A DNA stretch of 32,000 nt from Nitrospira sp. (GCA_024331125.1 JANDJI010000001.1:1-32000), one strand, 5' to 3'; shown: positions 1 to 29,856, counted from the stretch's first letter. The notes: a model not told the origin generated them from the letters alone. A program made the numbers and translations.

Positions 1-124
1 AATACCCAAACGTCCGCTGATACAACACCCAAAAAATCCCAATCGCCAACATCGCAAACCACCCAATCTTCCACGGCCGCGAATCATACCACTGCGAAAT
101 GTCATAGCCCCGCTCTGCCGCCAT
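1..124 (-). CDS. amoC: Ammonia monooxygenase subunit C (AmoC/PmoC family), 5' end only; gene continues beyond the left edge
   Basis: Absent from the ORF track (under 60 aa). The reverse complement of 1-124 translates to [41 protein letters not shown]. This matches the conserved N-terminal block of betaproteobacterial-type AmoC as I recall it (YD.S.WYDS...K.G...ML....FW..YQR.F.Y). A Shine-Dalgarno AAGGAGGG (plus coordinates 132-139) lies 7 nt upstream of the ATG at 124-122. Confidence 0.75.
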
Positions 125-694
125 AATGAATCCCTCCTTACGATTAGGTTAAGTTATCGGGCTTACGACTCTTACTGTAAACACCATGAAGTAATGCGCT
201 TCTATAAAAGTCCACCTTGAATGACGAGAGTATCCGATAAAGCTCCATCGCGAGTCAAGCGAAAATATCCGCCTCTGACCATTAGGACATCTTGCTTCCA
301 ACCGAAGTTCAGCCTTGCTTTTTCACAATTCATGTCATGCATGAGCTTTTTAAGCTCCCGGTAATGGCCATTGCTCCAAATCTAATGGACAATCGACGAC
401 AAGGAGGTAGAGGTAATGGGTGACCTGTGGGTTGCACACAAAAATGCTTTCCAACATGAAAACGGTCTCTCTCGATCCTGACTCTCCAAAACCTCCTCCC
501 GTATTAACCCAAGCAATGACTGACGAACCCGCTTATTTGTTGGGATGTCGAATCAAAACTCGGTGGTGGTACCATACCAATTTTAGGCAGGTTCTTCAGA
601 AAGTCCCTCAAATTCCTTGACTAGATTTGCATCCGGCTATGCTGGTGCCCACGGTCGTCACCAGCCCCACATACGCGACTTGCAGGCACAGGCA

Positions 695-1921
695 TGAGGG
701 TTCTGCCCTGATTTTACGGGCGCCTGACTGAAGACCCATAATGGGGCAGGCGGGGTGTCATGGGAGCACGAGGGCAGTTTACAGCCGAGGACAAACGAGA
801 CGCGGTGGCGATGCTCGATGTACCGGGGGGATGACGGTGAGCCAAATCGCTGCGATTTAGGCATCGGAGCGAATGTCTTGTGTGGTGGCGCCGCGAGTTG
901 CGCCAAGCCCCCAAGCCGGTGTTCGTGGCAATGGGCGAGTTCGAGATGAAGAGATGCGCCAGCTCCATCGCGAGTTGGCCCGGATCACGAAGGAGCGGGA
1001 TTTGTTGCGAGAAGCGGCAGCGTGCTTCGCGAGAGCGTCGACGTGAAGGTTCGGATGATCCAACGATGCCGCGACGCATTTCCCATCCGATTGATGTGTC
1101 GGTGTTAACGAATGTCGGCCAGCGGGTCGTACGGCTGGGTGGCGCGCGTGCCGAGTACGCGGACCCCAGGAGAACGTCCAGCTCCTGACCCGGATTCGGC
1201 AGCTCCATGCTGATTCCGACGGCATCATCGGAAGCCCGCGCACCGGGGAGCATCTACGCTACGCTGGGGAGCGGTGTGGGCGGCATCGGGTCGCCCGCCT
1301 GATGCGCCAGGCCGACTTGCGTGGCGTCCCGCAGCGACGACGCTGACGCACCAAGACATCAGGGACACCTCCAGCTGAAACCTGCAACCATTTGGAGCAA
1401 GACTGCACGGCCACTGCCCCCAACACGAAAAGGGTGACCGATATCACGTATGTGCGGACGGCCGAACACTGGCTGTACTTGGGTGTCGCCCTTAATTTGT
1501 ATATTCAGGGCTCGTGGTGGGCTGGTCCATGAGTGCGCGGCAAGATCGCCACTTGGTCATCCAAGCGGTCCTCATGGCCATCGGCAGCGGCCCACCCGCA
1601 CACCGGTCATTCTCCATTCCGATCGGGCTGCCCGTTTACCTCTGACGGGTACCGGCGGTTTCTGGCCGCCCATCAGGTAATCGGGAGCATGAGTGCGGTA
1701 GGCAGTTGCGCCGACAACGCCACGGCCGAGAGTTTCTTGGGCCGCCTTAAACGGGAACGGGTAAACCGACGGCGGTACCGGACGAGGAGCGAGGCAAGAG
1801 TGGATAGCGTTGACGACATCGAGCGCCGGCACAATCCCCGGCAGCGGCGGAGACTCCATCAGCAGCAACAGGGGGAGAAACTCTTAACATAACTGTCCGT
1901 GGAAACGGGGGAGAACCCCTC
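695..1921 (+). mobile_element. Heavily degraded IS3-family insertion sequence (orfA/orfB remnants broken by several frameshifts and stops)
   Basis: Manual three-frame reading gives the following pieces.
- orfA-like: RGQFTAEDKRDAVAMLD, MTVSQIAA, and the leucine-zipper end EEMRQLHRELARITKERDLLREAAACFARAST*.
- orfB-like: FPIRLMCRC*, ENVQLLTRIRQLHADSDGIIGSPR, VTDITYVRTAEHWLYLGVALNLY, SMSAVGSCADNATAESFLGRLKRERV..YRTRSEA.
These lie in different frames and are interrupted by stops. Imperfect terminal inverted repeats: tgagggttctgccctgattttacgg at 695 versus the reverse complement of ccgtggaaacgggggagaacccctc ending near 1921. Boundaries are approximate. Confidence 0.7.
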
Positions 1922-2443
1922 CGGATTTCCAAACCCTGTGATTGCACAGAACCTCCCTCTCTTTCTACTCACGATCGAATTCCAATCGTCGCCCCTCTTA
2001 ACTCTTTTTGTTGGAGTTTACTTTTATTGTAGCGCCTTTCATAGGGCAAAATGACGGGCCTCTTTCGATGACAAACCTCACAGCCCATCCCATTTCTATG
2101 CCTAGAATTTGATTTTTCCATCTTGCTGGGCGACTATCCTTTGGCCTTTCACCTGCCGTTTCTCTCGCGTTGATGGAGCCTTGATGGGGCCCTTTTCGGC
2201 TGCGCCGCAGCTGTATCTGCTCTCGCATACGACTTCCACCTTCCGACTTCTCGGATGAAGAAAATCTCGCCTCGGTCTGTCTGTTGAGTAGATAGCTCCG
2301 CCCTTCTGAGGTGGGGACATCCCGCTAAAATGGCCGCCGATACATCCTTTTTCTCTAAGAGAAAAGAGCCACCTGCCCCAGATCGGTTTCCTCCGCCCAC
2401 GATTTCCTTGGGCACACCATGGGGCATACTGCTTCTGCAAGAT

Positions 2444-3610
2444 ATGGAGGTGACTCCGGCGAAATCGAAAGCGGAGCGAGACCGCTTTTTCTCGCGAAAG
2501 AAGACGGACGTGATGCTACAGGGCGAGGGTCTTGATCTGGTCTCCCCTAAAGGGGAGATCACCACCGCGACGGTATCGACATGGCCGAACCAGTTGGCCC
2601 TTAGGGGCCAGGCTGGCTTGAAAAACCGGCCACCGATAGATGCGGCGAGGCAGTTGGAACCCTCACGGGAGGCGGTCCAGCGGCTTCCAGATGATGCCCC
2701 TTTGATCCAGTGAGAGATCGACACGATGAGCCACGCCACGTCGCCTTCTATTCAGCGTCCGCCTGGTGTGGTTCGGATGTGTAACGAGTGGCACCAGGCC
2801 CGGTCCACGGGCTATCATCAACAGACCCGTGCCGAGGGGCTGCTTGCTGGCCCAGCCAAGCGCGGCTCAAAGACGGTGCCTACAGACGAGGGCTCACCAC
2901 GCCATTAGGCACGCGCTTGCGGCTTTGCCCTTTCTCGGCGAAGGGCATCAAAGGCTGGGCACGCCTGCCAGCACAGAGCATTTGCACGCCCAGCCCACGC
3001 GTGTTGCGGCTCATGCGGCAGGCCAATCTCTTGGCCCCCAGTCAGGCACCACGCGCTGTGGGGCTACGGATCCACCGAAGGCACCATCGCCACGGAGGGT
3101 CCGAGTCAGCGGTGGGGCACGAATGCAACCAGCACCGTGACGGGGCAGGACTGAGCGGTCACGGTCTTTGTTGGTATAGATCATTGCACCGTTGAAGGGA
3201 ATCGACATCCATGCTTCGAAGCGGGTCACCCGTTTCGAAGCCTTGGCGAATCGGCGCCAAGGCGTGTGGCAGCAGTTCGGCGCCGTCTCATCCGACATTG
3301 CGATGGGCCTGCAGGTGCGGCGTAATTATGGCAGTCAGTAGATGAACCAGGGTTTTCAGGGGAACTCTGGTTTCTCGATATCACATCGAGTCCGGCATGC
3401 GTGTGTGCCCCGGAAGGTAACGGTGTCACGAAACGGTTCACGCACACGCTCAAGGAGCAGATGCTGTGGGCGCGTTCCAGACCGTGGAGGTTCGATCTCC
3501 ACGACTGACTGCGTTGCTATTACAATGGCTCGTTGAACGGTATGGGTTTCGGCGCCCGTTCAGGTTCGCCGAGACTTCCTCGCGACGTCGGCCAACCGCA
3601 TGAGGGGACA
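2444..3610 (+). pseudogene. Degraded DDE (rve/integrase-core) transposase pseudogene with N-terminal HTH remnant
   Basis: Fragments are spread over all three plus frames.
- N-terminal: LQGEGLDLVSPKGEITTATVSTWPNQLALRGQAGLKNRP, ALAALPFLGEGHQRLG, RVLRLMRQANLLAPS.
- Core: EGTIATEGPSQRWGTNATSTVTGQD*AVTVFVGIDHCTVEG, RFEALA..RQGVWQQFGAVSSDIAMGLQVRRNYGSQ*.
- C-terminal: FQGE..FLDITSSPACVCAPEGNGVTKRFTHTLKEQMLWAR, FQTVEV...LVERYGFR.P.QVRRDF.
Together they reconstruct a transposase of the HTH plus rve type, but with multiple frameshifts and in-frame stops. Ends are approximate. Confidence 0.6.
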
Positions 3611-3956
3611 AATAAAGCAGCGAATCCGGAGGACCGGCGGATCACGTAGACACGACGCACACCGGTGACTTAGGAACAACCATTGCCGAGCAACGAACCC
3701 GGAAGTGGGATCGAATACGGCTACACCCGTGTCAAGCAACCACAAACGATACCGGTTTCAAAAGAACAAACAATGGTACGGTGAACCAATGGGGATAGCC
3801 GTTCGCTGAACGGTCGTAGTTGAGCAATCAAGAGCGGGACTGGGGTAAAATTGAATAAAACAATCGATTCTGTTCATAGGGACGGAAACGTCGCTTATGA
3901 ACCATCGACTTCATGGCAGATATTCTTTAGGTAGCTTGCAGAAGGAGGCTCTCTCC

Positions 3957-4718
3957 GTGGAAACGACTGATTTTATTATTCCACAACGTGGAGACGATAC
4001 AGCCGGTCAATTCTTGGTTGTCACGCTGCATTCAATTCAAGTCGGGATGCCTCGTACGTTCGGTAGCGTGGATGCGACAGACCGAATGGACTCTCCATGG
4101 ACAACCGGTTTCTTCAAAGAACCGGTTCGCGGACCAGTCGGAGTCGGACTATGTAACCTGGAGGGCGATGGGCAGGCAGATCTCGTGAATCATGGAGGTT
4201 CGGAAAAAGCAATCAATGTATATCCTCTAGAGCATTATAATTATTGGAAATGCACTCTTGGATTGGCAGATTTGCCCTATGGCGCCTTTGGAGAAAACTT
4301 TACGACGACCGGGTGCTTGGAATCAGACGTCTGCATCGGAGACATTTTTACGGTTGGAGAAACCGTCGTTCAGATCTCGCAACCTCGACAACCGTGTTGG
4401 AAATTGTCGCGACGATGGCGTATACGGGATCTTGCGCTGAGAGTCCAGGAGACGGGTCGTACCGGCTGGTATTTCCGTGTCCTGAAAAAAGGAACGGTCG
4501 AGGCGGGAGCACCGATGGTTTTGATCCAACGCCCTTGTCCGCAATGGACCGTGCACGAGGCCAATCAAGTGATGCACCAATGTGCACAGGATGTTGACGC
4601 GGCAAGAAGGCTGTTGAACTGCCATTTTCTCAGCGAGCGTTGGCGTGAAACTCTGAGAAAGCGCATCGCAACCGGCATGATCAGCAGCGGCACTGCCAGA
4701 CTTTTTGGCCCCAACTAG
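3957..4718 (+). CDS. MOSC domain-containing protein (YiiM-like, with C-terminal helical extension)
   Basis: The ORF contains VNHGGSEKAINVYPLEHYNYW and GAFGENFTTTGCLESDVCIGDIFTVGETVVQISQPRQPCWKLSRRW, which carries the invariant MOSC cysteine. I place the start at GTG 3957 because GAAGGAGG (3941-3948) lies 8 nt upstream. The ORF track's ATG at 3897 is the alternative. This gene is visibly less GC-rich than the backbone: positions 4201-4260 have 20/60 G+C. Confidence 0.8.
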   Translation: METTDFIIPQRGDDTAGQFLVVTLHSIQVGMPRTFGSVDATDRMDSPWTTGFFKEPVRGPVGVGLCNLEGDGQADLVNHGGSEKAINVYPLEHYNYWKCTLGLADLPYGAFGENFTTTGCLESDVCIGDIFTVGETVVQISQPRQPCWKLSRRWRIRDLALRVQETGRTGWYFRVLKKGTVEAGAPMVLIQRPCPQWTVHEANQVMHQCAQDVDAARRLLNCHFLSERWRETLRKRIATGMISSGTARLFGPN

Positions 4719-5099
4719 ACTGCTGATGATTGGTTATGGTTAGCCCGTGGTATTTTCTGACGCTGCACTCTTCCAACAAATAGCAAAATTGTGTCGATTC
4801 CCACTCCTTTCCGGATGGGAACCTGCCGTGTAATTAGGACCAAGAGGCCTTGGAGCAATTGTTTGCTCCGTTCTCGCAGCTAGCTCGCAGGGCTTTTCAT
4901 GAGGGCCGGGATGGTTATCATGAGATCACGGCGGGCGTTTCCGTCGAGCACACACGTGCAGCGGTGGCGATACAGCTCCCCTGATAGTCTGCTCCGGGGA
5001 CCGGCTCCCATGCCGCGATCCACAGGAGCGGTGAAGTATGGATTCCTTGCGTGATACCTGCGTGATACCTGGCCGACGGACTGTAGTGCTCCCCTGGAA

Positions 5100-5930
5100 T
5101 CAAGCCACCTGGGTTGACTGTTGCGCGCGGAATTGAACGGGACTCCGGTACCCGAGCGCTTGATGCGGCCGCTCCTGGTTGTACCACTGGAGCCACTGCC
5201 GAATGACCGGCCGCGCCTCCTCGAACGTCTGAAAGGCATGCTGCCAGACACACTCTTCTTTGAGACTGCGAAAGAACCGCTCGATGATCCCATTCTGCTC
5301 CGGCGTATAGGGCGTGATGAATTCCTGCTGCAGCCGATAGTCTCGACAGGCCTGCCGAAACCGGCGACTCTGGAAGATCAGCCCCTTGTCGCTGCGGAGG
5401 ACCGGCGCGCCCACCGGACGCACCGTCCCAAACCGCTGCCGGCACGCCGCTTCGACGGCCCGTTCCGCCTCCTTGGCCCGGCGACGTAACGCGAACTCCT
5501 AGCCGATGACTTCCCGATCGTGACAGTCGATCACCGCGGCCCGATGGGCCCAGCCATCGTGGCCACAGGGAATCTGCGTCACATCCATCGCCCACCGTTC
5601 GTTGCTCCGACTGGCCCGACTCACCCAGCCCCGGACGCGAGGACGCGGGGTGGCGACGCGTTGCTGGACGAACCAGCCGTGCTGCTTCAGCACGCGATCC
5701 ACGGCTTTGCGATTCACCAACAGTCGGTCCCGAAATCGCAACTGCACCCACAACCGACGATACCCACACGTCGGATGCTGTTGAATCCAATACCGCAACC
5801 GCTCCAGCCACGGCGGCTCCGTGCAGCCTCGGCGTCGTGCCGCTCCGGTGGCCCGGTGCAAGCCGGCTCGGCTCACGCGGAGCCCCTGACAGCTCCGTCG
5901 CGCGGAGACACCCGACACGCGGGCTCTCAC
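5100..5930 (-). pseudogene. IS3-family transposase OrfB (rve DDE integrase core) interrupted by an in-frame TAG
   Basis: ORFs 5499-5930 and 5100-5423 are in the same frame and are separated by TAG at 5501-5499. The joined reading is ...AVIDCHDREVIG*EFALRRRAKEAERAVE...SDKGLIFQS...TPYTPEQNGIIERFFRSLKEE...YNQERPHQALGYRSP. In IS2 InsD the aligned position is Trp (..CDREALHW..), so a TGG to TAG change is the simplest explanation. Confidence 0.8.
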
Positions 5931-6259
5931 GCGTCGGCTGTCTTCCGGTCCAAAGGGTAGGGGTTCAAGGCCTCCCGTAAGATGTCGTTGTCCAAGACCA
6001 GATCCCCGATCTGCTGCTTCAACTTCTTGATCTGTTCGTCCTTCAAGGCCTCATCGTCCTTGGGCCGAGTCCGGAGCGCGTTCTCCGCCCCCAGGAGAAA
6101 CTTCTCGCGCCACTCCTCTACCTCCGCCACGGTCAGGCCGTGCTGCCGGGCCGCCTCGGCCACGGAGGTCTCGCCCTTCAGAATGCTGACGATCAACGCC
6201 ACCCGGCGCTTCGCCATCCATCGTTCAATGGGTTCTGCTGCTTCTGCTGCCATCGCCAC
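5927..6259 (-). CDS. IS3-family transposase OrfA (HTH DNA-binding plus leucine-zipper)
   Basis: 110-aa intact ORF. It contains KGETSVAEAARQHGLTVAEVEEWREKFL (helix-turn-helix) followed by the heptad-like IKKLKQQIGDLVLDNDILREAL, typical of IS3/IS2 OrfA. Confidence 0.85.
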   Translation of the reverse strand: MAMAAEAAEPIERWMAKRRVALIVSILKGETSVAEAARQHGLTVAEVEEWREKFLLGAENALRTRPKDDEALKDEQIKKLKQQIGDLVLDNDILREALNPYPLDRKTADA

Positions 6260-6572
6260 CTCCTCGGTCCACGCCAGGACCTTGTCGTAGAGGTGGTCTC
6301 AATTTCAAGAGGAGCAGGATAACCTCGCCTTGGCGGGAGAGCTTACAAGACCAAACAGAACACCGATCCCGTCCTCTGCTCCGATCAAGAACAGTCCCAG
6401 AACGGGGGCAACATCACCAAGATCACACAATTCCTTCATTCGTGGAAATTTTTAGGGGAAGGGGATTGAATAGAAAAGCGATCTAACCAGCTATGACAGA
6501 GAAAGAGACCGATTTTTCTTCATTAAAAAGAAGAGTTCATCGATTTTGTTAAAACTATGACATAGGACCAAA

Positions 6573-6609
6573 GGAGGGTACCTGCCATGAATGATGCAGG
6601 TACCCCTCC
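6573..6609 (-). terminator. Candidate intrinsic terminator downstream of cycB
   Basis: GC-rich hairpin: ggagggtacctgc (6573-6585), a 10-nt loop, then gcaggtacccctcc (6596-6609; one bulged base). On the minus-strand transcript the stem is followed by CCUUUGGUCCU, a short and imperfect U tract. It lies 78-114 nt beyond the cycB stop. Confidence 0.45.
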
Positions 6610-6686
6610 AGCTCACGATTGCCTATGAAGCATCCGCCTCAATAACTGATAGCTGACCGATCGATGACCGGAAAAAGATGGCATAC

Positions 6687-7292
6687 TTAGTCGTCCTTTC
6701 CATCTTCTTCTTCGTCCTCATCCTTCTTCTTTTTCACTTCCTTCAACACAGGTTTCCCCTGTGCCAAACTGGCATTGAGATCGTGCTCCGGGACTTTCTT
6801 ATGCACTAGGTTCTGATGGCAATCAATACAGGTCGCACCCTCAGTTTGCATCTTTGCATGAGCCGCCTTAGCAGAGGCACCAGGTGGCTTTGTGTTTTTA
6901 TGGCAAGCCCGACATGTCAGACTATCCCATTCCTTGAGTTTCATTCGTGCCCGGTATGCAGCTGCCGGACGATGCTCATTGAATTTCTCGACCGTGGAGT
7001 AGTCCGTCGTGAATTCTTTGATCAAGAATGGTACGCCGTCCACCACGTGGGTATAAATCGCCTTGTGGAAGTTAGAAAAACCTTGCGGCACATGGCAATC
7101 CTTGCAACCTGGGTCCATCCCGAGGGCACCCCAATGAGAGGATTTCTTCAACTCTTCATAGGGATAAGTTTCCGAATGACAGCTAACACAAAACTCCGTT
7201 CTCGATATTGCAGCCTCGCCCCCAAACACGACGGCGACACCCACAATACCCAGAACCCCACCAAGAATGAGTGTACCGGCCTTTCCTGACAT
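6687..7292 (-). CDS. cycB: Membrane-anchored tetrahaem cytochrome c, NapC/NirT family (cytochrome cM552)
   Basis: N-terminal TM helix (GTLILGGVLGIVGVAVVFGG). Four CXXCH motifs: CVSCH, CKDCH, CRACH, CIDCH. It sits immediately after cycA, as in hao-cycAB clusters. Its ATG overlaps the cycA stop (TGATG), with GAGGAGGA just upstream. Confidence 0.9.
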   Translation of the reverse strand: MSGKAGTLILGGVLGIVGVAVVFGGEAAISRTEFCVSCHSETYPYEELKKSSHWGALGMDPGCKDCHVPQGFSNFHKAIYTHVVDGVPFLIKEFTTDYSTVEKFNEHRPAAAYRARMKLKEWDSLTCRACHKNTKPPGASAKAAHAKMQTEGATCIDCHQNLVHKKVPEHDLNASLAQGKPVLKEVKKKKDEDEEEDGKDD

Positions 7293-8011
7293 CAGTCCTC
7301 CTCGACCTTATCCGCTTTCACAGGCGGTTTGGCGTTCTTCTGGAATTCTTCATGGAACTTCGGAGTTGGAGGCCCGGTAAATGTGCCTGCCAACTTGAAA
7401 TGCTCATGCATAGCCTTGTCGTTCCGCACAGATTTATCAAAGTCAAACGCATACTTTTTATCGACAGCGGGAGTGAAAGGAGTATAGGGTTTCTTGACGC
7501 CTTTCCAGCCTGATCCTTCGTAGTTTAGATGACACGCATTACACTTCTCCACAAACTCGAAGTCTTGTCCCGCCTCAACGAGTGACTCGCGTGGAGTTTG
7601 TTTTTGAGACTTTTCAAATGCTTCTCCGGCTTTCCGATGGATTTTTCGATAATCACTCCCCGCCCCATGACAGGATTCACAACCTACGCCTATAAGGAAC
7701 TTGTCAGGCTCTTCAATTGTATAACCGCCTTCCATACCCCAGCCGGTCACATGGCATCCTACACAGTCCTTATCTTTTGTATAGTCCTTTTTGGGATCAA
7801 GCTTTGCTTTGAGCTTCGCTTCTTTCCTCGTATTGGGTTTGAGGGATTCCATAGCTTTGGCATGGAGCGTTTTATCCCAGGATTCTCCCTGGCTTTTGTG
7901 GCAGTTGTAACATTTTTTTCTACCCTCAAACGTTCCCTCGGCTGATGCAGTTCCCGCCAACACAAGAAAAACCGCCACCGCGGCAAGTGCGGATATTGCT
8001 CGATAGTTCAC
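7292..8011 (-). CDS. cycA: Tetrahaem cytochrome c554
   Basis: Four CXXCH motifs: CYNCH, CVGCH, CESCH, CNACH. Long stretches match my recollection of Nitrosomonas c554 (FEGRKKC..CHK, HAKAMESLKPN, KAKLDP.KDYT.DKDCVGCHV, GGYTIE, GVGCESCHG, CHLNYEGS.WKG.K.PYTPFTP, KAMHEH.KL). I place the start at GTG 8011 (AAGGAG 5 nt upstream), which gives the signal peptide MNYRAISALAAVAVFLVLAGTASA. The track's TTG at 8080 adds 23 implausible residues. Confidence 0.9.
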   Translation of the reverse strand: MNYRAISALAAVAVFLVLAGTASAEGTFEGRKKCYNCHKSQGESWDKTLHAKAMESLKPNTRKEAKLKAKLDPKKDYTKDKDCVGCHVTGWGMEGGYTIEEPDKFLIGVGCESCHGAGSDYRKIHRKAGEAFEKSQKQTPRESLVEAGQDFEFVEKCNACHLNYEGSGWKGVKKPYTPFTPAVDKKYAFDFDKSVRNDKAMHEHFKLAGTFTGPPTPKFHEEFQKNAKPPVKADKVEED

Positions 8012-8151
8012 GGTAACTCCTTTCACTAAAAAAGAACTTTTGTTCTTATCGAATAGCTGTACATCTTCAGTTGTCTTCAAATCGCTTATTTATAGTTAAA
8101 ATACCATGACTGCGTGCTGATTATCATCACAGTTTTTACGCCGTCGCATGC

Positions 8152-9201
8152 TTAGTTTTGCCGTTGAATCTGCTCAGCCGAAGGAATTTTGTATATCCAA
8201 TACCCGCCTTCTTTATGTATCAATTGCAACGCATCAAGATCCATTGGCCTAGAGTTGGAAAACGGCAACATTTTCGCTAACAGTACATTACTAGCCCCGC
8301 TTTCGCGGAGAAAATACGCACGCACTTGCTTCTCGGAGAGAGACTGAAGCGTATAGCTTGTGTAGTCGTTGTTCGTCAGCCAGGCCTTCACCTGTCCGCT
8401 GAGTCCATGTACATTTCCAGTCAAGGGAAAATCCTTGAACGCAACGTCTATGCGATCAGGGCGCATCAGCCCCAACTTATAAATATCGCTCACATGCACG
8501 ACCACGTATGCTTCTCGCGAACCAACCAGCTCGCGCAGCATTGCGGCACCTTGATGAGGGTAAGCCATGAGAGCTTCAATAAATCGGTTAAACTGTGCGC
8601 GTTCTTCCGAAGAAGCCTGCTTCCCCCAAAACCTCTGCTCGTACTGTTCAATCGTTTCAAATCGGTCTCTCCAGTACGACGGGGCGATAACGGGCGAACC
8701 AAGATAAGCGCTGAACAGTGTCGGTCGATCGGACAAAAGAGCCAATTTTCTTGAAGTGTCCCACCATGCGACGATGATGGCATCGTTCGGCACATGTTTG
8801 GCGATCGCCGATGATACGGCAATCGTTTCTGAAAGCCCCTCCTCCATGGACAAAATCGGCTCTGGAAACTTATTTTCCACATGTAAGAGGACAGGATCTG
8901 AGCCGGATCGGCTTGCGCGGTAGACAACAGCGAGCGGTTGATCGATTGCGTCTACTCGTACTTCAAGCTTACTGATTGTCAGATTCGGATAACTATCCAG
9001 TCCCAGGTTGGGGAATCTATCCGCAGCACCCTCCTCAACCGCACGATAATGATAGGGCGGTGGTTCTGGTTGAAACCACAAATAGACGAACCACCCTACT
9101 AAAAAAAGGCCTCCCGCCACTAGGAGAATTCCCAGCAACGGGAGGAACTTACTGGCTGAGCGAGCCTTAACAGGCTCGCTCAGCGTAGGTGTTGCAATCA
9201 A
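8152..9201 (-). CDS. haoB: HaoB-type membrane protein (HAO-associated)
   Basis: 349-aa ORF immediately after haoA. It has a single N-terminal TM helix ([25 protein letters not shown]) and a large extracytoplasmic domain. It has no haem motifs. Position and architecture match haoB of ammonia oxidisers. The start is TTG 9201, overlapping the haoA stop (TTGA); there is no ATG in the first third of the ORF. Confidence 0.75.
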
Positions 9202-10913
9202 CGATCTTTCCTCTCTCGTCGACGCCAGCCGGCAATTGCCAACGTACCAGCCAACATCATGCCTCCGCCCAATCCCCCGATCGACAGCTTCCCGCCCGGA
9301 CCATCGAGATCCAGCAGAGAGTGCTTTCGCTCGTTTTCGAGCTTATCGACACGGGCCAGCAGCTTTTGCATTTCTTTAAGTCGAGTGTCATCGTCCATGA
9401 TTTCCACATAGGCCCGATTCATTGCAGCCCAACCAACCGTATAGGTATATCCCCAATACTGGTGAGCCAAACTGACGTGTAATTGGACCAGATGGTCCTC
9501 CGCCATTTCAAACAGCTTGAGCTCGTTAGCCGCAGGGTTATTCCCCTTTGACCAATAAATCTGGAAGAACTGTTCGAAGCCGTCCTTCACTGGAGGAGGC
9601 GGTGCCGGCCTGTTGGTTTTTTGTCCTGTCAGCAACCCGGCCTTGTACTGCTCTTCGACTACGTGATGAGCCTCATCGTACTTGTCGAGACCGGAGTACG
9701 TACCCTTGTCCATGAATTCCATCCAGGCGCGAGCATAACTTTCCGAGTGACAGTTCGTACAGGTCTTGACCCACGCATCGAGTCGCTTTTCGGACCAATC
9801 GGTCGAGATATTCTCTCGGATACCAGGAACGAACGGATAGTTTGCCCATCGAACCTTGCGCACCACATTGTGGGTTATCTTACCTTGATATTCCATGTGG
9901 CAGAATTGGCATGTCGGGGCACTCAACCCACCCTTGGCGATGGCTTCTTTGATGGGAATGTTGAAATTCCACTTATCTTTGTCTCTCTGATACTTCAATC
10001 CGTGCTTGGAGAGGGAGTAGGCCTCCCAGTTATTGTGGTCGGCCCCACTGTGACACTGCGCGCAATTCTCAGGCTTGCGCGATTCCGCCACCGAGAATTC
10101 ATGACGCGAGTGACAAGTATCGCACTTGTTCTGATTGACGTGACAACCGGTACAGCCATCAGCGATTTCCCTTTGAGGCATCCCAGCATAAACGTCTACC
10201 TCCACGTTGGCCTTATAATCCAAAGCATGCGAGGGACGTCCCTTCGGCCACTGATCTTTTGGCCATGTGATGGTATCGCGTTCCGACTCCCGTTCAGCAA
10301 ATTCCTGCAGATGGCAAGTGCCGCAGGTGTTCGCCGTCGCCAGCTTAATGTCCTTGCGATGATCGGCCTTGCCCTTGGCATTGACTTCAAAGTGACAATC
10401 AATGCACCCAACTTCTTTTAGCTGCTCCCCCTTGCCCAACTTGCCCATCGACCGAAGGTTTTCCTCGATCTGCTCAAGCTTCGCCTTCTTGTAATAGGTT
10501 TCATCCTTCGGCGTCAGTTTACGGATTTTATCGAGATTGGCATGCGTACTACGCTTCCACGCAGCCACCCATCCAGGTGATTCATCCGTATGGCATTTGA
10601 CGCACTGCTCACGGCTTGCGACTTCTTTGACAGCCTGAGGCGGCTTGTAGAATGTCGTGGGATCGAAATACTTGCTGAAAGTGACGGGCTCCCAGTACTG
10701 ACCGTAAATTCCCTTTCCGGCCCCTTGCTCAGGATCGAGGTACCTCTTCACCAGAGCCTCGTACAACTCCTTTGGAGAAGCCGAACGGTCGATCTTCAGT
10801 GCCTCATAAGTTTCCTTCGGCACCGTCGGGAAGTCCGCTTGCGCCGGTGCGGCCAGTAAAACACCGCAGACGAGCATAACAAACTTCTGCGCAAACTTGC
10901 TGCTCATCGTCAC
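9198..10913 (-). CDS. haoA: Hydroxylamine oxidoreductase (hydroxylamine dehydrogenase), octahaem cytochrome c
   Basis: 571 aa with a Sec signal peptide (..[10 protein letters not shown]). Eight CXXCH motifs: CVKCH, CIDCH, CGTCH, CTGCH, CDTCH, CAQCH, CQFCH, CTNCH. A Tyr-rich segment, [12 protein letters not shown], lies near the C-terminal third. There is a C-terminal hydrophobic anchor ([21 protein letters not shown]) followed by [13 protein letters not shown] lies 7 nt upstream of the ATG. Confidence 0.92.
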
Positions 10914-10991: not shown

Positions 10992-11035
10992 AGACACAAC
11001 ACGCCGCGCACACCACGGTTCTTGAGCGCCGCGCT

Positions 11036-11065: not shown

Positions 11066-11146
11066 GAATATTTCGGATGTCACGAGAAACCGGCCTCCTG
11101 ATATTCGCGTGCATCTGTCTGTTAACGAAGATCCGGCAAGAGAACC

Positions 11147-12448
11147 TCACGGTCGCTGGCGATCGATTACAATCGTAATGCCTTCCGTTCCCGGTTTGAT
11201 CGGCTGGCTCATCCCTTCAAGGTCTCCGCTCCCAGGCATAGCCGTCCCAGATCGGGAAAGGCGCGCCACAATCACAACCGTCTCAAGGTCGGATAATTTG
11301 CGGGAGGGCATCGGGCTGGTCGAATCGTCCAGCCTAAAGGTAAACGGCAGATCCTTTTTCGTCGCGCGCACGATCGATACCGGCATCGGCGGGCCGTTCG
11401 GATCCTTTGCAAAGACGAACAATGTATCGGCTCCGGAAGACTTGGCTTCCATACCGGGCCCCAAAATCACCTTGCCGGTGATCGCATGCGATCCATCTCG
11501 TTTCTTGATCGGAGGATGATCGGCCGGAACCGATGACTGGGCGAGCGCGGCATTTGCCATCGCCATCAACGGAGCTCCGCCCATCCGCCGCTTCGCCTCG
11601 TTGATGCCGGCCATGAGTTGCTCGGTGGATTCCGGATCGGAATTCGGAGGGAGATTCGCGCGCGCGAGTTCCCAATCTTTGACGGCCGAGACAAAATCCT
11701 TCCGGTTAAAGGCCACGGTGCCCGAGAGCATCAACGCTTTCACGTTATTGGGGTCAAGCTGTAACGCCTTCTGAATCAGCGCCTCGGGCTTGCCTTCAAG
11801 TTTGCGTCCCTGATGAACCCCGAGCGCATCGGCATAATCCGCAAGCAGGCCCGCGTCGTTGGGACTCAGCGTCACGGCCCTTTCGAAAATGGGCACGGCC
11901 TCGGCATAACGATCCATCGCCATATAGGAGCGAGCCAAGAGGGTCCACCCCGTCACATCATCGGGATTCTGCTCCAGCTTCTGTTTCAGTCGTTCAATCA
12001 ATGTATTGAGCCCCTCCGCCATCAGACGATCATCTTCCACGTCACCTTGCGAAGCGGAGAACGCCCCGGCAGCCGGATGCGTCATGGCTACCGGATTGCC
12101 CAAGGACCAGTACAAGACCCCGCTTGCCATCGGAATAAGCACGACGAGCGCCAACGCAACGTATTTCACGTTCATCGGTTGGACCGCCGCCGCGCCTTTT
12201 TCTGTCACGCCCACCTCCTCCAACAGACGACGTTCCAATTCTTGGCGCGCCGTCATATATTGCTCCTCCGTCAGCAACCCGCTGGATTTGTCCTGCTCCA
12301 GTTCAGCGAATTGCTGTCGATAGACCGGCAGCGTCTTCTCCCGCTCCATGCCCGTTCCTCCAGCAGCCTGCTTTAAAAGCGGGCGCAGAAGAACTCCCAG
12401 AATGACCATAATCAGAGCCGTGGCGATCAATCCGAATGTGAGAGTCAT
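11147..12448 (-). CDS. ccmI: Cytochrome c-type biogenesis protein CcmI (CycH), TPR-containing
   Basis: 433 aa. It has an N-terminal TM helix, a second TM helix (YVALALVVLIPMASGVLYW), and TPR-like repeats (WTLLARSYMAMDRYAEAVPIFERAVTLSPND..). It is last in the ccm operon, and its ATG overlaps the ccmH stop (ATGA). Confidence 0.8.
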   Translation of the reverse strand: MTLTFGLIATALIMVILGVLLRPLLKQAAGGTGMEREKTLPVYRQQFAELEQDKSSGLLTEEQYMTARQELERRLLEEVGVTEKGAAAVQPMNVKYVALALVVLIPMASGVLYWSLGNPVAMTHPAAGAFSASQGDVEDDRLMAEGLNTLIERLKQKLEQNPDDVTGWTLLARSYMAMDRYAEAVPIFERAVTLSPNDAGLLADYADALGVHQGRKLEGKPEALIQKALQLDPNNVKALMLSGTVAFNRKDFVSAVKDWELARANLPPNSDPESTEQLMAGINEAKRRMGGAPLMAMANAALAQSSVPADHPPIKKRDGSHAITGKVILGPGMEAKSSGADTLFVFAKDPNGPPMPVSIVRATKKDLPFTFRLDDSTSPMPSRKLSDLETVVIVARLSRSGTAMPGSGDLEGMSQPIKPGTEGITIVIDRQRP

Positions 12449-12906
12449 GATTCTTTCACTCCTTGGGAGAGCAGCCGCTCCACGCGCCGATGCTCTTCAT
12501 CCGTAATGACCGCGTTCTCTACCATTCTTTGCCGACGCCTCAACGTCACTGCGAGCGCGATACCTCCTCCCACCAGCAACACGAAGGGCCCCGCCCATAA
12601 CAGGACGGTGGTGGTCTTGAGAGGAGGGCGATACAGGACAAAATCTCCGTACCGTGACACAAGAAAATCGACGATCTCCCGATCGCTCATATCCTTGACG
12701 ATCATCTCGCGGACTTCACGACGCAAATCCTCCGCCAGCGGCGCATTGGAATCGGCGAGGGTTTGATTCTGACAAACCAGGCAGCGAAGCTCTCCGGCCA
12801 ACTGTTTCAGACGCGCTTCAACGGCGGGATCGTCTCCCAGGGGCCTCGCTTCTCCGGCCCATGCCGACCCTGCGACAAGCAACAGCAGACAGAACAACCA
12901 GTTCAC
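12445..12906 (-). CDS. ccmH: Cytochrome c-type biogenesis protein CcmH (CycL)
   Basis: Signal peptide, the hallmark LRCLVCQNQTLADSNAPLA motif (LRC..CQ), and a C-terminal TM helix. The GTG start overlaps the ccmG stop (GTGA). Confidence 0.88.
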   Translation of the reverse strand: MNWLFCLLLLVAGSAWAGEARPLGDDPAVEARLKQLAGELRCLVCQNQTLADSNAPLAEDLRREVREMIVKDMSDREIVDFLVSRYGDFVLYRPPLKTTTVLLWAGPFVLLVGGGIALAVTLRRRQRMVENAVITDEEHRRVERLLSQGVKES

Positions 12907-13430
12907 TTCGCTTGCAGCTCCTGTATCAAGGGCAGGATTTTCTTGGTCACCGTTTCATCATCCAACGGTCCGATCTGTTTATAGCGGATGACGCCCTGCT
13001 TATCGATCACGTAGGTTTCCGGCACACCATAGACGCCATAGTCGATCCCGACCCGACCCGCCGCGTCGACGGCCACAACCTGATAGGGATTGCCCCACTG
13101 ATCCAACCATGCCAGAGCTTCATCCCTTTGATCCTTGTAATCCATTCCATAAATCGGCGCGATGCCGGATCGGGCGAAATCCATGAGGACCGGGTGCTCG
13201 GTCCTGCACCCACTACACCATGAGGCCCAGAAGTTAAGTAACCATACCTGGCCCTTCATATCGTCCAATGACAACGTCTTTCCGTCATCGTGCAGTTGGG
13301 GAAGCGAAAAAGCCGGCGCGGCCTTGCCGATCAACGGAGAAGGGATCTCCCGCGGATTCAACGTCAGTCCAACCGCGAGAAAACCCACCATGACTGCAAA
13401 GATCGTGAGGGGCAACAGAAAGCGACTCAT
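12903..13430 (-). CDS. ccmG: Thiol:disulfide oxidoreductase CcmG/DsbE
   Basis: N-terminal anchor, a thioredoxin fold with WASWCSGC (CXXC), and GVYGVPETYVIDKQGVIRYK. It lies between ccmF and ccmH. Confidence 0.88.
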   Translation of the reverse strand: MSRFLLPLTIFAVMVGFLAVGLTLNPREIPSPLIGKAAPAFSLPQLHDDGKTLSLDDMKGQVWLLNFWASWCSGCRTEHPVLMDFARSGIAPIYGMDYKDQRDEALAWLDQWGNPYQVVAVDAAGRVGIDYGVYGVPETYVIDKQGVIRYKQIGPLDDETVTKKILPLIQELQAK

Positions 13431-13435
13431 GCCAT

Positions 13436-15418
13436 TTACCGACCGGCCAGTTGTGCGTTCGCCGGCACCACTTGCGGTTCACGCCTCCAGGCGGGGCGGT
13501 AGCGCCGGTCGCTGACGGCCAACGCACCGCCCAAAGCCATAATCAAACATCCGCCCCAAATCCAATTCACGAACGGTTTATGATATAGCCGGACGCTCCA
13601 TGCTCCGTCCTCCAACGGCTCGCCCAAGGACACGTACAGATCCCGCACCACTCCGCTGTCGATTGCAGCTTCCGTCATCACCTGATTTTGAGCCGTATAT
13701 CGTCGTTTCTCCGGATACAGCAGGGCCGTTTCTCGACCATCGCGGCTCACATGGAACGTCCCGCGCACCGCCGTATAGTTGGGGCCTCTCACGTTCTGTA
13801 CGCCGTCGAACCGAAACGTGTATCCGCCGACGGTCGCGACGTCCCCCACGCCCATCCGAACGTCCTGTTCTGTCTCAAACCCCTTGACCATCGTGACCCC
13901 GACCACGAACACGGCGATCCCGCAATGGGCCAAGAGCATTCCCCAATAAGCTCGCGGCAATCTCGCAAGACGAGCACCGATGCCGCCTCCGATCAGATGG
14001 GCGAGTTGCTCACGCACCGATACGATGGCAGTCGCCACAATCCAGCATGCCAGGAGGAACCCTAAACTGAGCAACGGCGTCCATTCTCCCAGAACAATCG
14101 GCAAGCCCAATGCCGTCAACACACTGACGCCGGCGGCCCAGCGCACCCGTTTCGCCAAGTCAGGGATCTCGGCTTTTTTCCATTGAGCCAACGGGCCGAT
14201 ACCCATCAAAAAGAGCGCCGGCGTGATCAACGGAACGAAGACCGAATCGAAATAGGGCGGGCCGACGGAAATCTTCCCCAGGTCCAGCGCGTCAAGAAAC
14301 AGCGGATACAGCGTTCCCAACAGCACGGCCCCGGTTGCCGCAACCAAAAGCACGTTGTTGGCCAACAGGAAACCTTCCCTCGACACAGGAGCGAAGCCTC
14401 CGCCCAACCCCACCCGCGGAGCGCGCCAGGCGTACAACAGCAGAGATCCGCCGATCACGACGGCCAGGAACGACAAGATAAACAAGCCGCGCTTGGGATC
14501 CGTCGCGAACGCGTGGACGGACGTCAAGACACCGGAACGGACCAGGAAGGTTCCAAGCAAACTCAGCGAAAAGGCCATGATGGCGAGCAGCACCGTCCAC
14601 ACCTTGAATCCGCCTCGTTTATCGGTTACGGCGAGCGAATGGACCAGCGCGGTCCCTGCCAGCCATGGCATGAACGAAGCATTTTCGACCGGATCCCAAA
14701 ACCACCATCCGCCCCACCCCAATTCGTAATAGGCCCATCCGCTGCCCAGCGCGATCCCGATCGTCAGGAAACACCAGGCCACCGTCGTCCAGGGTCGTGA
14801 CCAGCGGGCCCATGCCGCGTCAAGGTTGCCGCCCAAGAGCGCGGCCAACGCGAAGGCGAACGCCACGGAGAACCCGACGTAGCCCATGTACAACATCGGG
14901 GGATGGAGCACCATGCCGGGATCCTGCAAGAGCGGATTCAAATCGCGCCCCTCGGCTGCGGCGGGGATGAGCCGCTCAAACGGATTGGACACACTCAACA
15001 TGAACAGAAGAAACCCCACGCTCACCAGCCCCATCACCCCGAGAATGCGCGAACGCATGGCCTCCGGCAAATGGGACGAGAACAACGTCACGGCAAACAT
15101 CCAAATCGTGAGAATGAACGTCCACAAGAGCAACGAGCCCTCATGCGCTCCCCAGATGGCCGCCAACCGATAATGGAGGGGCAACTGGGAATTGGACGTC
15201 GCCGCCACGTATAGCACAGAAAAATCCTTGTTCGCGAAGGCATAGGCCAGGCAGCCGAAGGCCGTGAGCACGAGGAAGAATTGGCAGCGCGCCGCCGGCA
15301 CCGCGAGGGCCATCAACCTGGAGTTGCCGACGGCCGCTCCATAGATGGGGAGAGTCCCCTGCACGAGCGCAACGCACAACGCAAGGATCAAGGCAAAGTG
15401 ACCGATTTCTGGAATCAT
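13436..15418 (-). CDS. ccmF: Cytochrome c haem lyase subunit CcmF
   Basis: 660-aa polytopic membrane protein with the WWD-type motif GWGGWWFWDPVENASFMPW. It lies in operon context after ccmE. Confidence 0.92.
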   Translation of the reverse strand: MIPEIGHFALILALCVALVQGTLPIYGAAVGNSRLMALAVPAARCQFFLVLTAFGCLAYAFANKDFSVLYVAATSNSQLPLHYRLAAIWGAHEGSLLLWTFILTIWMFAVTLFSSHLPEAMRSRILGVMGLVSVGFLLFMLSVSNPFERLIPAAAEGRDLNPLLQDPGMVLHPPMLYMGYVGFSVAFAFALAALLGGNLDAAWARWSRPWTTVAWCFLTIGIALGSGWAYYELGWGGWWFWDPVENASFMPWLAGTALVHSLAVTDKRGGFKVWTVLLAIMAFSLSLLGTFLVRSGVLTSVHAFATDPKRGLFILSFLAVVIGGSLLLYAWRAPRVGLGGGFAPVSREGFLLANNVLLVAATGAVLLGTLYPLFLDALDLGKISVGPPYFDSVFVPLITPALFLMGIGPLAQWKKAEIPDLAKRVRWAAGVSVLTALGLPIVLGEWTPLLSLGFLLACWIVATAIVSVREQLAHLIGGGIGARLARLPRAYWGMLLAHCGIAVFVVGVTMVKGFETEQDVRMGVGDVATVGGYTFRFDGVQNVRGPNYTAVRGTFHVSRDGRETALLYPEKRRYTAQNQVMTEAAIDSGVVRDLYVSLGEPLEDGAWSVRLYHKPFVNWIWGGCLIMALGGALAVSDRRYRPAWRREPQVVPANAQLAGR

Positions 15419-15430
15419 GGCGGGTATGTC

Positions 15431-15898
15431 CTATTGGGGTTGAACAATCAGCGTGTTGCTGCTCTGGGCGCCGGCGGCCTTGGCTTTGGCCAAAGCTTCG
15501 GCGGCCTCGGGCGGCATGTAATTTTCGTCGTGCTTCGCCAACACTTCACTGGCGACGAACGTCCCATCGGCATCAAGCTGTCCTTGGGCGACCGCCCCCT
15601 TCCCTTCCTTGAAAAGATCCGGCAGAATGCCTTTATAAACCACCGGCACGCGCTTGGCGGTGTCCGTCACCACGAAGCGGACGGTCAGGCCGTCGGCTTC
15701 GCGCTTGACACTTCCGTCTTCGACCATCCCGCCGATCCGAAAACTCCGCCCTTTCGGTACTTCGCCGTTGGCCACCTGCGTCGGCGTGAAAAAGAATACC
15801 AGATTGCTCTGAAACGCGTTCAACACCAGCGCCGTCGCCACTCCCAACACCAGCAAGCCCAACCCGACGAACGCAAACCGTTTTTGCCGAGGCGTCAT
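15431..15898 (-). CDS. ccmE: Haem chaperone CcmE
   Basis: [19 protein letters not shown] anchor, an OB-fold region, and the haem-binding motif [13 protein letters not shown] place the start at ATG 15898, overlapping the ccmD stop (ATGA). The track's 25-residue N-terminal extension is unlikely. Confidence 0.88.
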
Positions 15899-16065
15899 CC
15901 GATGTCCCTCACGATGCCCCGGCTTTCGGCGATCGCGGCGGCGCGCCGACGCCAGAGCGCGAGAATTTCCCACACCATGCAGAGCCCCGTGATGATGAAC
16001 GACGTCCAGACGTACAGACCATAGCCGCCCATCTCAAGAAATTCGCTCAGACTTCCCCAGTACAT
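15895..16065 (-). CDS. ccmD: Haem exporter small subunit CcmD
   Basis: 56 aa from ATG 16065, which overlaps the ccmC stop (TGATG): [41 protein letters not shown]. It has a single TM helix followed by a basic patch. Size and position between ccmC and ccmE are typical of CcmD. Confidence 0.75.
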
Positions 16066-16811
16066 CAGCGGACCCCCGCGACTTCCGGCACCGACGACGG
16101 TTTGCTCCACAACTGGAGACTTTCCCGCTCAAGGATCACGCAGCGAGCACGGCTTAGGATCACCGCCAGACTGTACATCCAGAAGCCGAACGTCATCAGC
16201 AACATGCCCGTCAGCATGATCGTCGCCATTTTCGGCGCCGCCGTCATACTGACCGACGCCCCTTGATGCAACGTGTTCCACCACTGGACTGAAAAATAGA
16301 TGATGGGAATGTTGACGACGCCGACCAACGCGCAGACCCCGCTCGCGCGATCGGCGCGACGCTGATCGTCGATCGACGTCCGCAACAGCATCACGCCGGC
16401 ATATTGAAACAGGAGAATCAATTCCGACGTCAGTCTGGCGTCCCACACCCACCAGGCTCCCCACGTCGGTTTCCCCCACATCGCCCCGGTCAACAGCGCA
16501 AGAAAGGTGAACATCGCGCCGGTCGGCGCGATGGCCTGCGTCATCATGAACGAGAGGCGCGCGTTGAGCCCCAAGCCCACGGCGGCCCACACCGCCATGA
16601 CGACATAGAGAAACATGGACATCCACGCGGCCGGCACGTGGACGAAAATGATCCGATAGGCTTCGCCCTGCTGAAAATCGGTCGGCGCGACAAGCAGCCC
16701 GATGTAGAGTCCCACGGCGATCGCCAGCGCCGCCACCGTCCCAAACCAAGGAATCATCCTCCCCGCCAGCGGATAGAACGCCAGCGGCGCCGAATACTTT
16801 GACCAATTCAC
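16065..16811 (-). CDS. ccmC: Haem exporter/handling protein CcmC
   Basis: Polytopic membrane protein with the tryptophan-rich motif WGKPTWGAWWVWDARL. I place the start at GTG 16811 (GGAAGGA upstream), 26 nt after the ccmB stop. The 479-aa track ORF owes its N-terminal 231 residues to an open frame overlapping ccmB. Confidence 0.88.
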   Translation of the reverse strand: MNWSKYSAPLAFYPLAGRMIPWFGTVAALAIAVGLYIGLLVAPTDFQQGEAYRIIFVHVPAAWMSMFLYVVMAVWAAVGLGLNARLSFMMTQAIAPTGAMFTFLALLTGAMWGKPTWGAWWVWDARLTSELILLFQYAGVMLLRTSIDDQRRADRASGVCALVGVVNIPIIYFSVQWWNTLHQGASVSMTAAPKMATIMLTGMLLMTFGFWMYSLAVILSRARCVILERESLQLWSKPSSVPEVAGVR

Positions 16812-16837
16812 CTTCTCAGAATCCTTCCGCTGTTTTC

Positions 16838-17521
16838 CTATTCGAGCGCGATGCGCAGCGCCGACGCCGTGGCCCAGGGCGCAAAAAACACCGATAAAAC
16901 GAGACAGGCTCCAAGCAACGAGAGGTTGGCCTCGCCGCCGATTCCGGCCATGCTGCTCGTGACGGCGCCGGCTCCGAAGATCAGCACCGGAACGTAAAGG
17001 GGAAGCACCAAGAGGGCGACCAACAGCCCGCTTCCGCGCACTCCAAGCACCAGCGCGGCACCAATGCTTCCAATCATACTCAACGTCGGCGTCCCAAGCA
17101 AGAGCGAGAGGACCAGCATGCCCAAGGCCTCGCCTTCCAAGCCGAATTGGAGGCCGAGCAGCGGCGACAGCAGCACTACGGGCAACCCGGACACCACCCA
17201 GTGCGCAAAAACCTTCCCCGCCACCAGAACGGGCAACGGCTGAGCGATCAACAGCATTTGCTCCAGCACCCCGTCGAGATAATCGGCCGTAAACACCCTT
17301 CCGAGCGACAGAAGGCAGGCCAAGAGCGCCGCCACCCAGAGCACCCCGGCGGCAATGGTCCTCAACACCGCCGGCTCCGGTCCCACTCCCAAGGGAAACA
17401 GACTCGCCACAATGACCAAGAACAACACCGAAATCGCCACGTCGGATCGACGGCGGATCGCCAGCAGGAGATCCCGCCAGATAATCCCGCGCAATGTCTC
17501 CCACAAACCCGGCTGACTCAT
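16838..17521 (-). CDS. ccmB: Haem exporter permease CcmB
   Basis: 227-aa six-helix membrane protein (WRDLLLAIRRRSDV.., FPLGVGPEP..). Its ATG overlaps the ccmA stop (ATGA), and it lies between ccmA and ccmC. Confidence 0.88.
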   Translation of the reverse strand: MSQPGLWETLRGIIWRDLLLAIRRRSDVAISVLFLVIVASLFPLGVGPEPAVLRTIAAGVLWVAALLACLLSLGRVFTADYLDGVLEQMLLIAQPLPVLVAGKVFAHWVVSGLPVVLLSPLLGLQFGLEGEALGMLVLSLLLGTPTLSMIGSIGAALVLGVRGSGLLVALLVLPLYVPVLIFGAGAVTSSMAGIGGEANLSLLGACLVLSVFFAPWATASALRIALE

Positions 17522-18138
17522 CCGTCCAGCCTCAAACGCTGAACCATCTCGGACGGGAGAGCCACCTCATGGTGCGTCACGACGACCGCGAGTCCTCCGC
17601 CCTGCAAATGCGACCGCAGCCGCTCCGTCACCAGAGCTGTCGCCGCCTGATCCAACGAGGTAAACGGCTCATCCAAGAGCCACAAGGGATGGGTCGAGAG
17701 CCAGAGGCGGGCCAAAGCCACACGCCGCTTTTGTCCTTGCGACAACACTCTGGTGGGCAGATGATGAATCCGATGCTTCAGACCGACGGCCTCCAGCGCA
17801 TCCCGGACGGAGGCGTCGGACGGACGATCGCCGGTTAAGGCGGCGGTGAGCAGGAGATTTTCCGTCGCCGTCAGATCATCCTTGATTCCATTGAGGTGGC
17901 CGATATAGGTCAATTGCGCGCAATACTGCTCTTTAAGCCGGCGAATATCGACCCCATGCCAAAGAACGGCTCCTTCCTCGGGGGCCAGCAGGTTGCACAA
18001 CATGCGAAGGAAACTCGTCTTTCCGCTTCCGTTTTCTCCGACCACGGCCAGCACGGTGCCCGGCTGCACCATCACGTTCACGTTGGAAAACAGCCGTCGA
18101 TCTCCCCGCCGGCAGCTCAACGAAACGGTTTGCAACAT
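17518..18138 (-). CDS. ccmA: Haem exporter ATP-binding protein CcmA (ABC ATPase)
   Basis: Walker A GENGSGKTS, ABC signature LSQGQKRR, Walker B LWLLDEP. I prefer the ATG at 18138 (MLQTVSLSCRRGDRRLF.., GAGGAG upstream). The track start at 18159 is a TTG lying within that ribosome-binding site. Confidence 0.88.
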   Translation of the reverse strand: MLQTVSLSCRRGDRRLFSNVNVMVQPGTVLAVVGENGSGKTSFLRMLCNLLAPEEGAVLWHGVDIRRLKEQYCAQLTYIGHLNGIKDDLTATENLLLTAALTGDRPSDASVRDALEAVGLKHRIHHLPTRVLSQGQKRRVALARLWLSTHPLWLLDEPFTSLDQAATALVTERLRSHLQGGGLAVVVTHHEVALPSEMVQRLRLDG

Positions 18139-29845: not shown

Positions 29846-29856
29846 GAGGATGACTC

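Follow-up and report, generated by a model that had tools for sequence, protein, structure and literature searches.

Periplasmic ammonia-oxidation genes beside a System I cytochrome c maturation operon in a chromosomal segment from a probable hot-spring comammox Nitrospira

The first 32,000 nucleotides of a Nitrospira sp. contig (GCA_024331125.1 JANDJI010000001.1:1-32000; this whole stretch is referred to as the window) contain the start of amoC, a haoAB-cycAB cluster encoding hydroxylamine oxidoreductase (HAO) and its cytochromes, and a nine-gene cytochrome c maturation (ccm) operon, joined to a block of core Nitrospira genes (Table 1). Based on protein identities, catalytic and haem-binding motifs, host lineage, gene order and purifying selection, the window is very probably a chromosomal segment from a hot-spring complete ammonia-oxidising (comammox) Nitrospira of clade A, related to Ca. 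N. inopinata, that carries the periplasmic half of ammonia oxidation. The description of comammox Nitrospira in 2015 ended the view that nitrification takes two organisms, and the window holds the genetic core of that ability. The type of region is already known, with the species and its gene content published in 2023, and nothing in it is categorically new; its value is that of a clean worked example, in which a hao cluster of foreign composition and a host-like ccm operon are joined to a core synteny block after topA.

The four genes of the hao cluster encode the octahaem HaoA, HaoB, the tetrahaem cytochrome c554 (CycA) and the tetrahaem cytochrome cM552 (CycB), with 16 CXXCH motifs (eight in haoA, four in cycA and four in cycB) within 4.2 kb, and translation and family matches located all of them where an earlier note, made from the sequence alone, had read them. 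HaoB is a conserved membrane-anchored partner. Among solved structures, HaoA is closest to the N. europaea HAO (6M0P, 4FAS and 1FGJ; E ~1e-264, 64.8% identity), with the remaining HAO-like octahaem proteins, those of anammox included, scoring far below (1e-50 to 1e-17). In the alignment to N. europaea HAO, the second tyrosine of ‘WGYTYTVGW’ falls on Tyr467 of 4FAS (numbering counted from the alignment), the residue cross-linked to the P460 haem, and the catalytic Asp267-His268 and Tyr334 are kept in ‘GADHNNW’ and ‘WANYPF’, respectively. Judged by these residues, HaoA is an oxidative P460-type HAO of the cross-linked kind that the earlier note had anticipated. A reductive octahaem enzyme was also considered and is ruled out by the likeness to N. 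europaea HAO and the retention of the cross-link and catalytic residues.

The best match to HaoA in a large protein collection is 96% identical and belongs to a metagenome-assembled genome (MAG) of a hot-spring Nitrospira. The next matches, at 70–89% identity, are mostly without an organism name, and those that are named belong to Nitrospira, Nitrospiraceae or Nitrospirota, apart from one assigned to the Deltaproteobacteria. A neighbour-joining tree nests the window HaoA inside the Nitrospira HaoA clade. HaoA sequences from Nitrosospira, Rhodocyclaceae and Ca. Desulfobacillus are 65–67% identical to that of the window, in agreement with the ~66% identity reported between comammox and betaproteobacterial ammonia oxidisers (Palomo et al., 10.1101/138586).

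The amoC gene is represented at the left end of the window by its first 41 codons, recognised by translation, and 40 of the 41 encoded residues agree with the N-terminus of AmoC in a related locus (L081; L-numbers denote the loci of relatives) whose AmoC matches PF04896, bearing out the claim that the start of this gene is present. As a query, the 41 residues matched only three short Nitrospira AmoC fragments (78–80% identity), too few for a tree. At the corresponding position in L120 and L170, amoCAB is found.

The lineage of the host was assessed through a scan with TopA, for which one genome per species was used and the best 80 loci were taken for lineage and synteny counts, with gene order established by comparing the window proteins against these loci by tblastn. 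The best 80 TopA loci are 78–99% identical to the window and carry the labels Nitrospira, Nitrospiraceae, Nitrospirota, Nitrospirae or Nitrospirales, except for one, a comammox bin ‘CMX’ with the record title Nitrosospira sp. The order mreB–mreC–mreD–mrdA–rodA–rng–dprA–topA is kept in every sufficiently long locus of the 80. Consequently for the backbone, the nitrite-oxidiser lineage that the earlier note had made its condition for a complete nitrifier is the one found, and neither Nitrosomonadales nor Nitrosococcus. An ordinary locus from one of these two groups of ammonia oxidisers, with no Nitrospira involved, could draw on the fact that HaoA, c554 and cM552 are nearest to the N. europaea proteins among solved or cultured references and that a System I ccm operon is typical of betaproteobacterial ammonia oxidisers as well, but it is ruled out, with a vanishing residual probability, by the TopA loci, the mreB-to-topA synteny and HaoA identities of 70–96% to Nitrospira against 65–67% to Nitrosospira and Rhodocyclaceae.

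At the nucleotide level, the nearest relatives of the window are JZ-4_Bin198 (97.6% identity over 7.9 kb), QZM_B4_3_Bin89 (92.8%) and DGJ02_3_Bin65 (89.2%), all of which share its gene order from mreB to ccm. Based on the identity over 7.9 kb, the window and JZ-4_Bin198 can be assigned to one species. Exact look-ups of the window HaoA, with either of two start choices, and of its CycB in a gene-position index gave no hit, so that the window would stem from a sister strain or another MAG of this species, unless differences in gene calling account for the result. The three are MAGs from a study of thermophilic comammox Nitrospira in hot springs published in ISME J in 2023, in which they were placed in comammox clade A alongside N. 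inopinata, amoCAB, hao and nxrAB were reported for 11 of 11 MAGs, and transcripts of the full pathway (amoCAB, hao and nxrAB) were detected in situ for some of them (PMC10284858).

Directly upstream of haoA, all nine genes of a System I maturation operon gave family matches above the curated cutoffs, so that the operon is as complete as had been claimed, and the translations contain the signature motifs of the system (WWD in CcmC and CcmF, HDENY in CcmE, WCSGC in CcmG and LRCLVC in CcmH). A ccm operon is linked to hao in L081, L082–L086, L167 and L170 as well. Comammox genomes have been reported to use System I, compared with System II in canonical Nitrospira, and System I has been argued by Palomo et al. 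to suit iron-poor habitats (10.1101/138586). The division that the earlier note had drawn, System I in comammox and System II in nitrite-oxidising relatives, therefore stands in outline but not as an absolute rule, as some strict nitrite oxidisers, few in number, carry ccm too (PMC6852473).

The two halves of the island differ in composition. The GC content is 60.3% from topA to mreB and 59.8% in ccm, compared with 50.4% in the hao cluster (6687-10913), where the GC content at third codon positions ranges from 47 to 62% and the tetranucleotide correlation to the backbone is r = 0.41–0.44; for ccm (11147-18159), the correlation is r = 0.88–0.93. The compositional break thus lies at ccmI/haoA and not at ccmA, and the two halves, one foreign and one host-like in composition, seem to have different histories. 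A break at this point is consistent with the deviant tetranucleotide signature of the ammonia-oxidation genes in the published account of N. inopinata and with the occurrence of ccm in a few strict nitrite oxidisers.

A deviation of this size (GC 50% against 60%, r ~0.42), together with insertion sequence (IS) elements in the region and assemblies that break nearby in amoC, could also arise if assembly or binning had joined an ammonia-oxidiser island to the backbone of a nitrite-oxidising Nitrospira. The identical join of topA, the lipocalin/DUF1269 genes, ccm and hao recurs, however, in MAGs and metagenomes that were assembled separately and sampled at different sites (L002, L003, L005, L006, L037 and L081), with haoA following ccmI in L006 (UBA2082), and the bridging ccm operon is host-like in composition. 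As the join recurs in independent assemblies and is bridged by host-like sequence, a chimera is ruled out as a practical matter and would be extremely unlikely.

By analogy with Nitrosomonas, the encoded proteins would act in sequence. AMO, of which only the start of amoC lies in the window, would make hydroxylamine from ammonia, and a trimeric octahaem HaoA with a tyrosine-cross-linked P460 haem would turn hydroxylamine into nitric oxide or nitrite in the periplasm. Electrons would pass from HaoA to c554 (CycA), then to the membrane-anchored cM552 (CycB) and into the quinone pool. The neighbouring CcmABCDEFGHI, if it works like other System I machineries, would export haem and bind it covalently at the 16 CXXCH sites of HaoA, CycA and CycB. 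The module adjoins the topA end of a core block of Nitrospira genes for cell shape and replication, immediately downstream of that gene, and IS3-family elements have accumulated between hao and amoC.

Table 1. Features annotated in the 32,000-nucleotide window, with positions counted from its first nucleotide
Feature	Position	Strand	Evidence or remark
amoC, first 41 codons	2..124	-	translation; exits left window end
Degraded IS3-family transposase copy	~730..1892	+	several in-frame stops; stop-bridged translation: HTH_21 2e-13, rve_3, rve
YiiM-type MOSC gene, intact	3957..4718	+	conserved part from 4032; PF03473 MOSC 5e-36; PF03475 YiiM_3-alpha
IS3-family element	5100..6259	-	orfA 5927-6259 (HTH_28, HTH_Tnp_1); orfB ~5100-5930 (rve_3 2e-24, rve 6e-16, HTH_21)
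cycB, tetrahaem cytochrome cM552, NapC/NirT family	6687..7292	-	4 CXXCH; PF03264 9e-44
cycA, tetrahaem cytochrome c554	7292..8080	-	4 CXXCH; NCBIfam equivalog NF043010 421 bits (cutoff 400); PF13435
haoB	8152..9201	-	NCBIfam TIGR04392 haoB_nitrify, 352 bits (cutoff 200)
haoA, octahaem hydroxylamine oxidoreductase	9198..10913	-	8 CXXCH; PF13447 1e-138; ATG start at 10907
ccmABCDEFGHI operon	11147..18159	-	NCBIfam/Pfam matches above curated cutoffs for each
ccmI	11147-12448	-	
ccmH	12445-12906	-	
ccmG	12903-13430	-	
ccmF	13436-15418	-	
ccmE	15431-15898	-	
ccmD	15895-16068	-	PF04995
ccmC	16065-16790	-	
ccmB	16838-17521	-	
ccmA	17518-18159	-	
DUF1269 membrane protein gene	18295..18984	+	PF06897 4e-26
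Lipocalin (Blc-like) gene	19025..19585	-	PF08212 5e-50
Variable stretch	19641..21293	-	SnoaL-like gene 19641-20012 (SnoaL_2 6e-9); pilT 20214-21293
Core block topA, dprA, rng, rodA, mrdA, mreD, mreC, mreB	21577..32000	-	mreB truncated by window end; order shared across Nitrospira loci

All of the hao, cyc and ccm reading frames are intact, and every haem-binding and catalytic motif is present. Compared with L081, HaoA has 96% amino acid and 81.5% nucleotide identity, with a non-synonymous divergence (dN) of 0.025 and saturated synonymous sites, and ccmF has a ratio of non-synonymous to synonymous divergence (dN/dS) of 0.04; hao and ccm are under strong purifying selection. This state has to be set against the possibility that the module is a decaying relic, eroded by insertion sequences in a host that lives as a nitrite oxidiser. 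Such a relic would fit the content of the amoC–cycB spacer, with its two IS3-family copies and other degenerate sequence, the absence from this region of a gene pair present in relatives (bfr, see below), the retention of ccm alone by a few strict nitrite oxidisers, and the metatranscriptomes of 2023, in which two close relatives yielded no hao or amoAB transcripts (PMC10284858). Given intact frames under strong selection, IS copies confined to intergenic space and the expression of amoCAB, hao and nxrAB by other MAGs of the same hot-spring set (PMC10284858), decay of the module is improbable.

Several observations nevertheless weigh against reading the window as part of a complete ammonia oxidiser. 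In the samples examined in the hot-spring study, nitrification transcripts were limited to nxrAB in DGJ02_3_Bin65 and to amoC in QZM_B4_3_Bin89, with no hao or amoAB transcripts from either (PMC10284858). Within the 32,000 nucleotides of the window there is no nxrAB, amoA or amoB; of the pathway, only the half from ammonia to nitrite is represented, and complete nitrification by the host would rest on what was published for the conspecific MAGs. A promoter scan of 6200-11300 returned one promoter-like site compared with 4.5 expected, and a terminator scan of the same interval returned eight terminator-like sites compared with 5.0 expected, no more than chance. Further, several related assemblies end inside amoC, five of them at residues 38–58 (L104, L097, L107, L090 and L119), and those of L167 and L168 stop within a gene fragment of 42 residues in the matching position; the L081 assembly ends at residue 132 and the window itself begins at residue 41. 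These breaks point to several near-identical copies of amoC, in which case the copy in the window may be an orphan and not the head of an amoCAB operon.

The spacer between amoC and cycB (125-6686) contains an intact YiiM-type MOSC gene, one IS3-family element on either side of it and other degenerate sequence. The IS debris that the earlier note had described between hao and amo is present, though ‘debris’ does not suit the element between cycB and the MOSC gene, which is nearly intact apart from a single in-frame stop (5499-5501). Likewise, the statement that all of 1-18138 is carried on one strand holds for the main genes, which are on the minus strand, and fails for the MOSC gene and the degraded IS3 copy, which are on the plus strand. 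No terminal inverted repeats or target duplications of the IS copies were found, and stop-bridged translations of 1900-3900 in the three plus-strand frames gave no Pfam match. The string ‘PEGNGVTKRFTHTLKEQMLW’ within this interval looks by eye like a further decayed integrase-core remnant, an assignment that is unproven.

The distance between cycB and the MOSC gene is 160–230 bp in most related contigs, compared with ~2 kb in the window and in L081, where an orfA remnant occupies the site matching the IS3 element of the window. Based on the common spacing and the remnant, the insertion looks old and shared by the window and L081. Other transposases occupy the gap between amoC and the MOSC gene in relatives, including an IS4-like element in L104 (558-2009) and an intact IS3-like element in L167 (877-1923), and in N. 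inopinata transposases lie directly upstream of amoCAB (PMC6852473), in agreement with the IS content here. Across these contigs, the gaps between amoC, the MOSC gene and cycB can be regarded as a hot spot of insertion and rearrangement.

The MOSC gene encodes a protein 100% identical to MCP9468359.1 (Nitrospira sp.), whose gene lies on a contig of 796,760 bp that is probably the source of the window. Over its full length it matches YiiM structures in the PDB (5yhh, 6e-54; E. coli YiiM, 9e-41), it has the conserved cysteine of the QPRQPC motif, and it differs from YiiM (5YHH and 1O65), which reduces N-hydroxylated bases with the help of the molybdenum cofactor, in the position of its gene between amoC(AB) and cycB. 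About 30 of the 80 best metagenome MOSC homologues have amoC, amoA or bfr upstream, cycB-cycA-haoB-haoA downstream, or both. The gene occurs in an amo–hao setting in L081 (16382-17065), L104, L110, L119, L120, L167 and L170, where it is usually convergent with cycB, and a circular 3.07-Mb genome contig has the order copCD-amoCAB…MOSC followed by cycBA-haoBA…ccm. Relative to L081, dN/dS of the gene is ~0.06, which indicates purifying selection. YiiM and YcbX of E. coli detoxify N-hydroxylated bases, which makes a role for the MOSC protein on by-products derived from hydroxylamine an attractive idea. Given that the gene keeps its position across dozens of independent comammox contigs and evolves under purifying selection, the protein could conceivably be a dedicated accessory of complete ammonia oxidation that reduces N-hydroxylated by-products, such as bases, or leaked hydroxylamine, although this specific role is doubtful. 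No paper that connects MOSC with comammox turned up in the literature available to search.

A second lead for specialists, beside the recurring MOSC gene, is a pair of ferritin-like (bacterioferritin, bfr) genes that hints at the site where the module was integrated. The conserved backbone of the window stops at topA (21577), and two bfr genes come directly after topA in 45 of the 80 loci (e.g., L048 12601-13556), including RCB and CG24E, comammox genomes of clade B, while ~20 other loci have a PagL-like gene in this place. A bfr pair also stands just upstream of the MOSC gene in L119 and L120 (L120 7447-8405) and is absent there from the window, having been lost in the lineage of the window. 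Since bfr1 of L119 and L120 is 81–93% identical to bfr1 behind topA in other Nitrospira, the comparison suggests that the topA|bfr-bfr junction may be where the whole module inserted into the Nitrospira chromosome, with an inversion following later. No pre-inversion locus was seen among the loci compared.

In its overall layout, the window resembles the AMO/HAO/ccm region of clade A (Ca. N. inopinata, Ca. N. nitrosa and Rifle RCA), with which it shares amoC, haoAB-cycAB and ccmA-I in one region, transposases upstream of amoC, the deviant composition of the ammonia-oxidation genes and a Nitrospira host. That region was reportedly described by Daims and by van Kessel in 2015, Palomo in 2018 and Poghosyan in 2019. 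N. europaea has the same order of haoA, haoB, cycA and cycB and its HaoA shares with that of the window the eight haem sites and a C-terminal membrane anchor, while the window CycA passes the Nitrosomonas equivalog model for c554. Beyond the difference in host phylum, the window hao abuts ccm and is linked to amoC, whereas N. europaea has three dispersed hao copies away from amo. All nine components of the System I of E. coli and Rhodobacter, CcmABCDEFGH(I), are present in the window with their signature motifs, but in contrast to those organisms, the operon immediately precedes the genes of the proteins that it presumably serves most, and the other members of the host genus mostly use System II.

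Published maps of the AMO genomic region show amo, cop, bfr, cyc, hao and ccm together, and they bear out the statement in the earlier note that a hao cluster abutting ccm, with transposases near amo, is a known arrangement of comammox Nitrospira (PMC6852473). The window differs from these maps in lacking copCD and bfr in this stretch, with IS remnants at the position that bfr-bfr takes up in relatives. It further differs from other comammox lineages in the junction of ccmI and haoA. In L082–L086 (e.g., L085 9261-9707), a small gene of 148–154 amino acids that encodes only an Ig-like CycH domain (Ig_CycH) lies between the two genes; in the window (10914-11146) and in L081, there is a 233-bp gap instead.

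The adjoining block was characterised in the earlier note as high-GC housekeeping genes from pilT to mreB, which is accurate for the genes and their GC content but not for pilT as a member of the backbone. At the site between topA and the lipocalin/DUF1269/ccm genes, pilT and the SnoaL-like gene occur only in L001–L004, the four nearest relatives, and neither is at the topA–ccm site of L081, L005 or L006. The window gave no matches in scans for Rfam families and tRNA genes. The DUF1269 gene adjoins ccmA in L002–L006 and L081, joined by the lipocalin gene in L002, L003, L005 and L081, while L006 has the DUF1269 gene beside ccmA without the lipocalin gene. In L004, ~5 kb of extra sequence is inserted after pilT.

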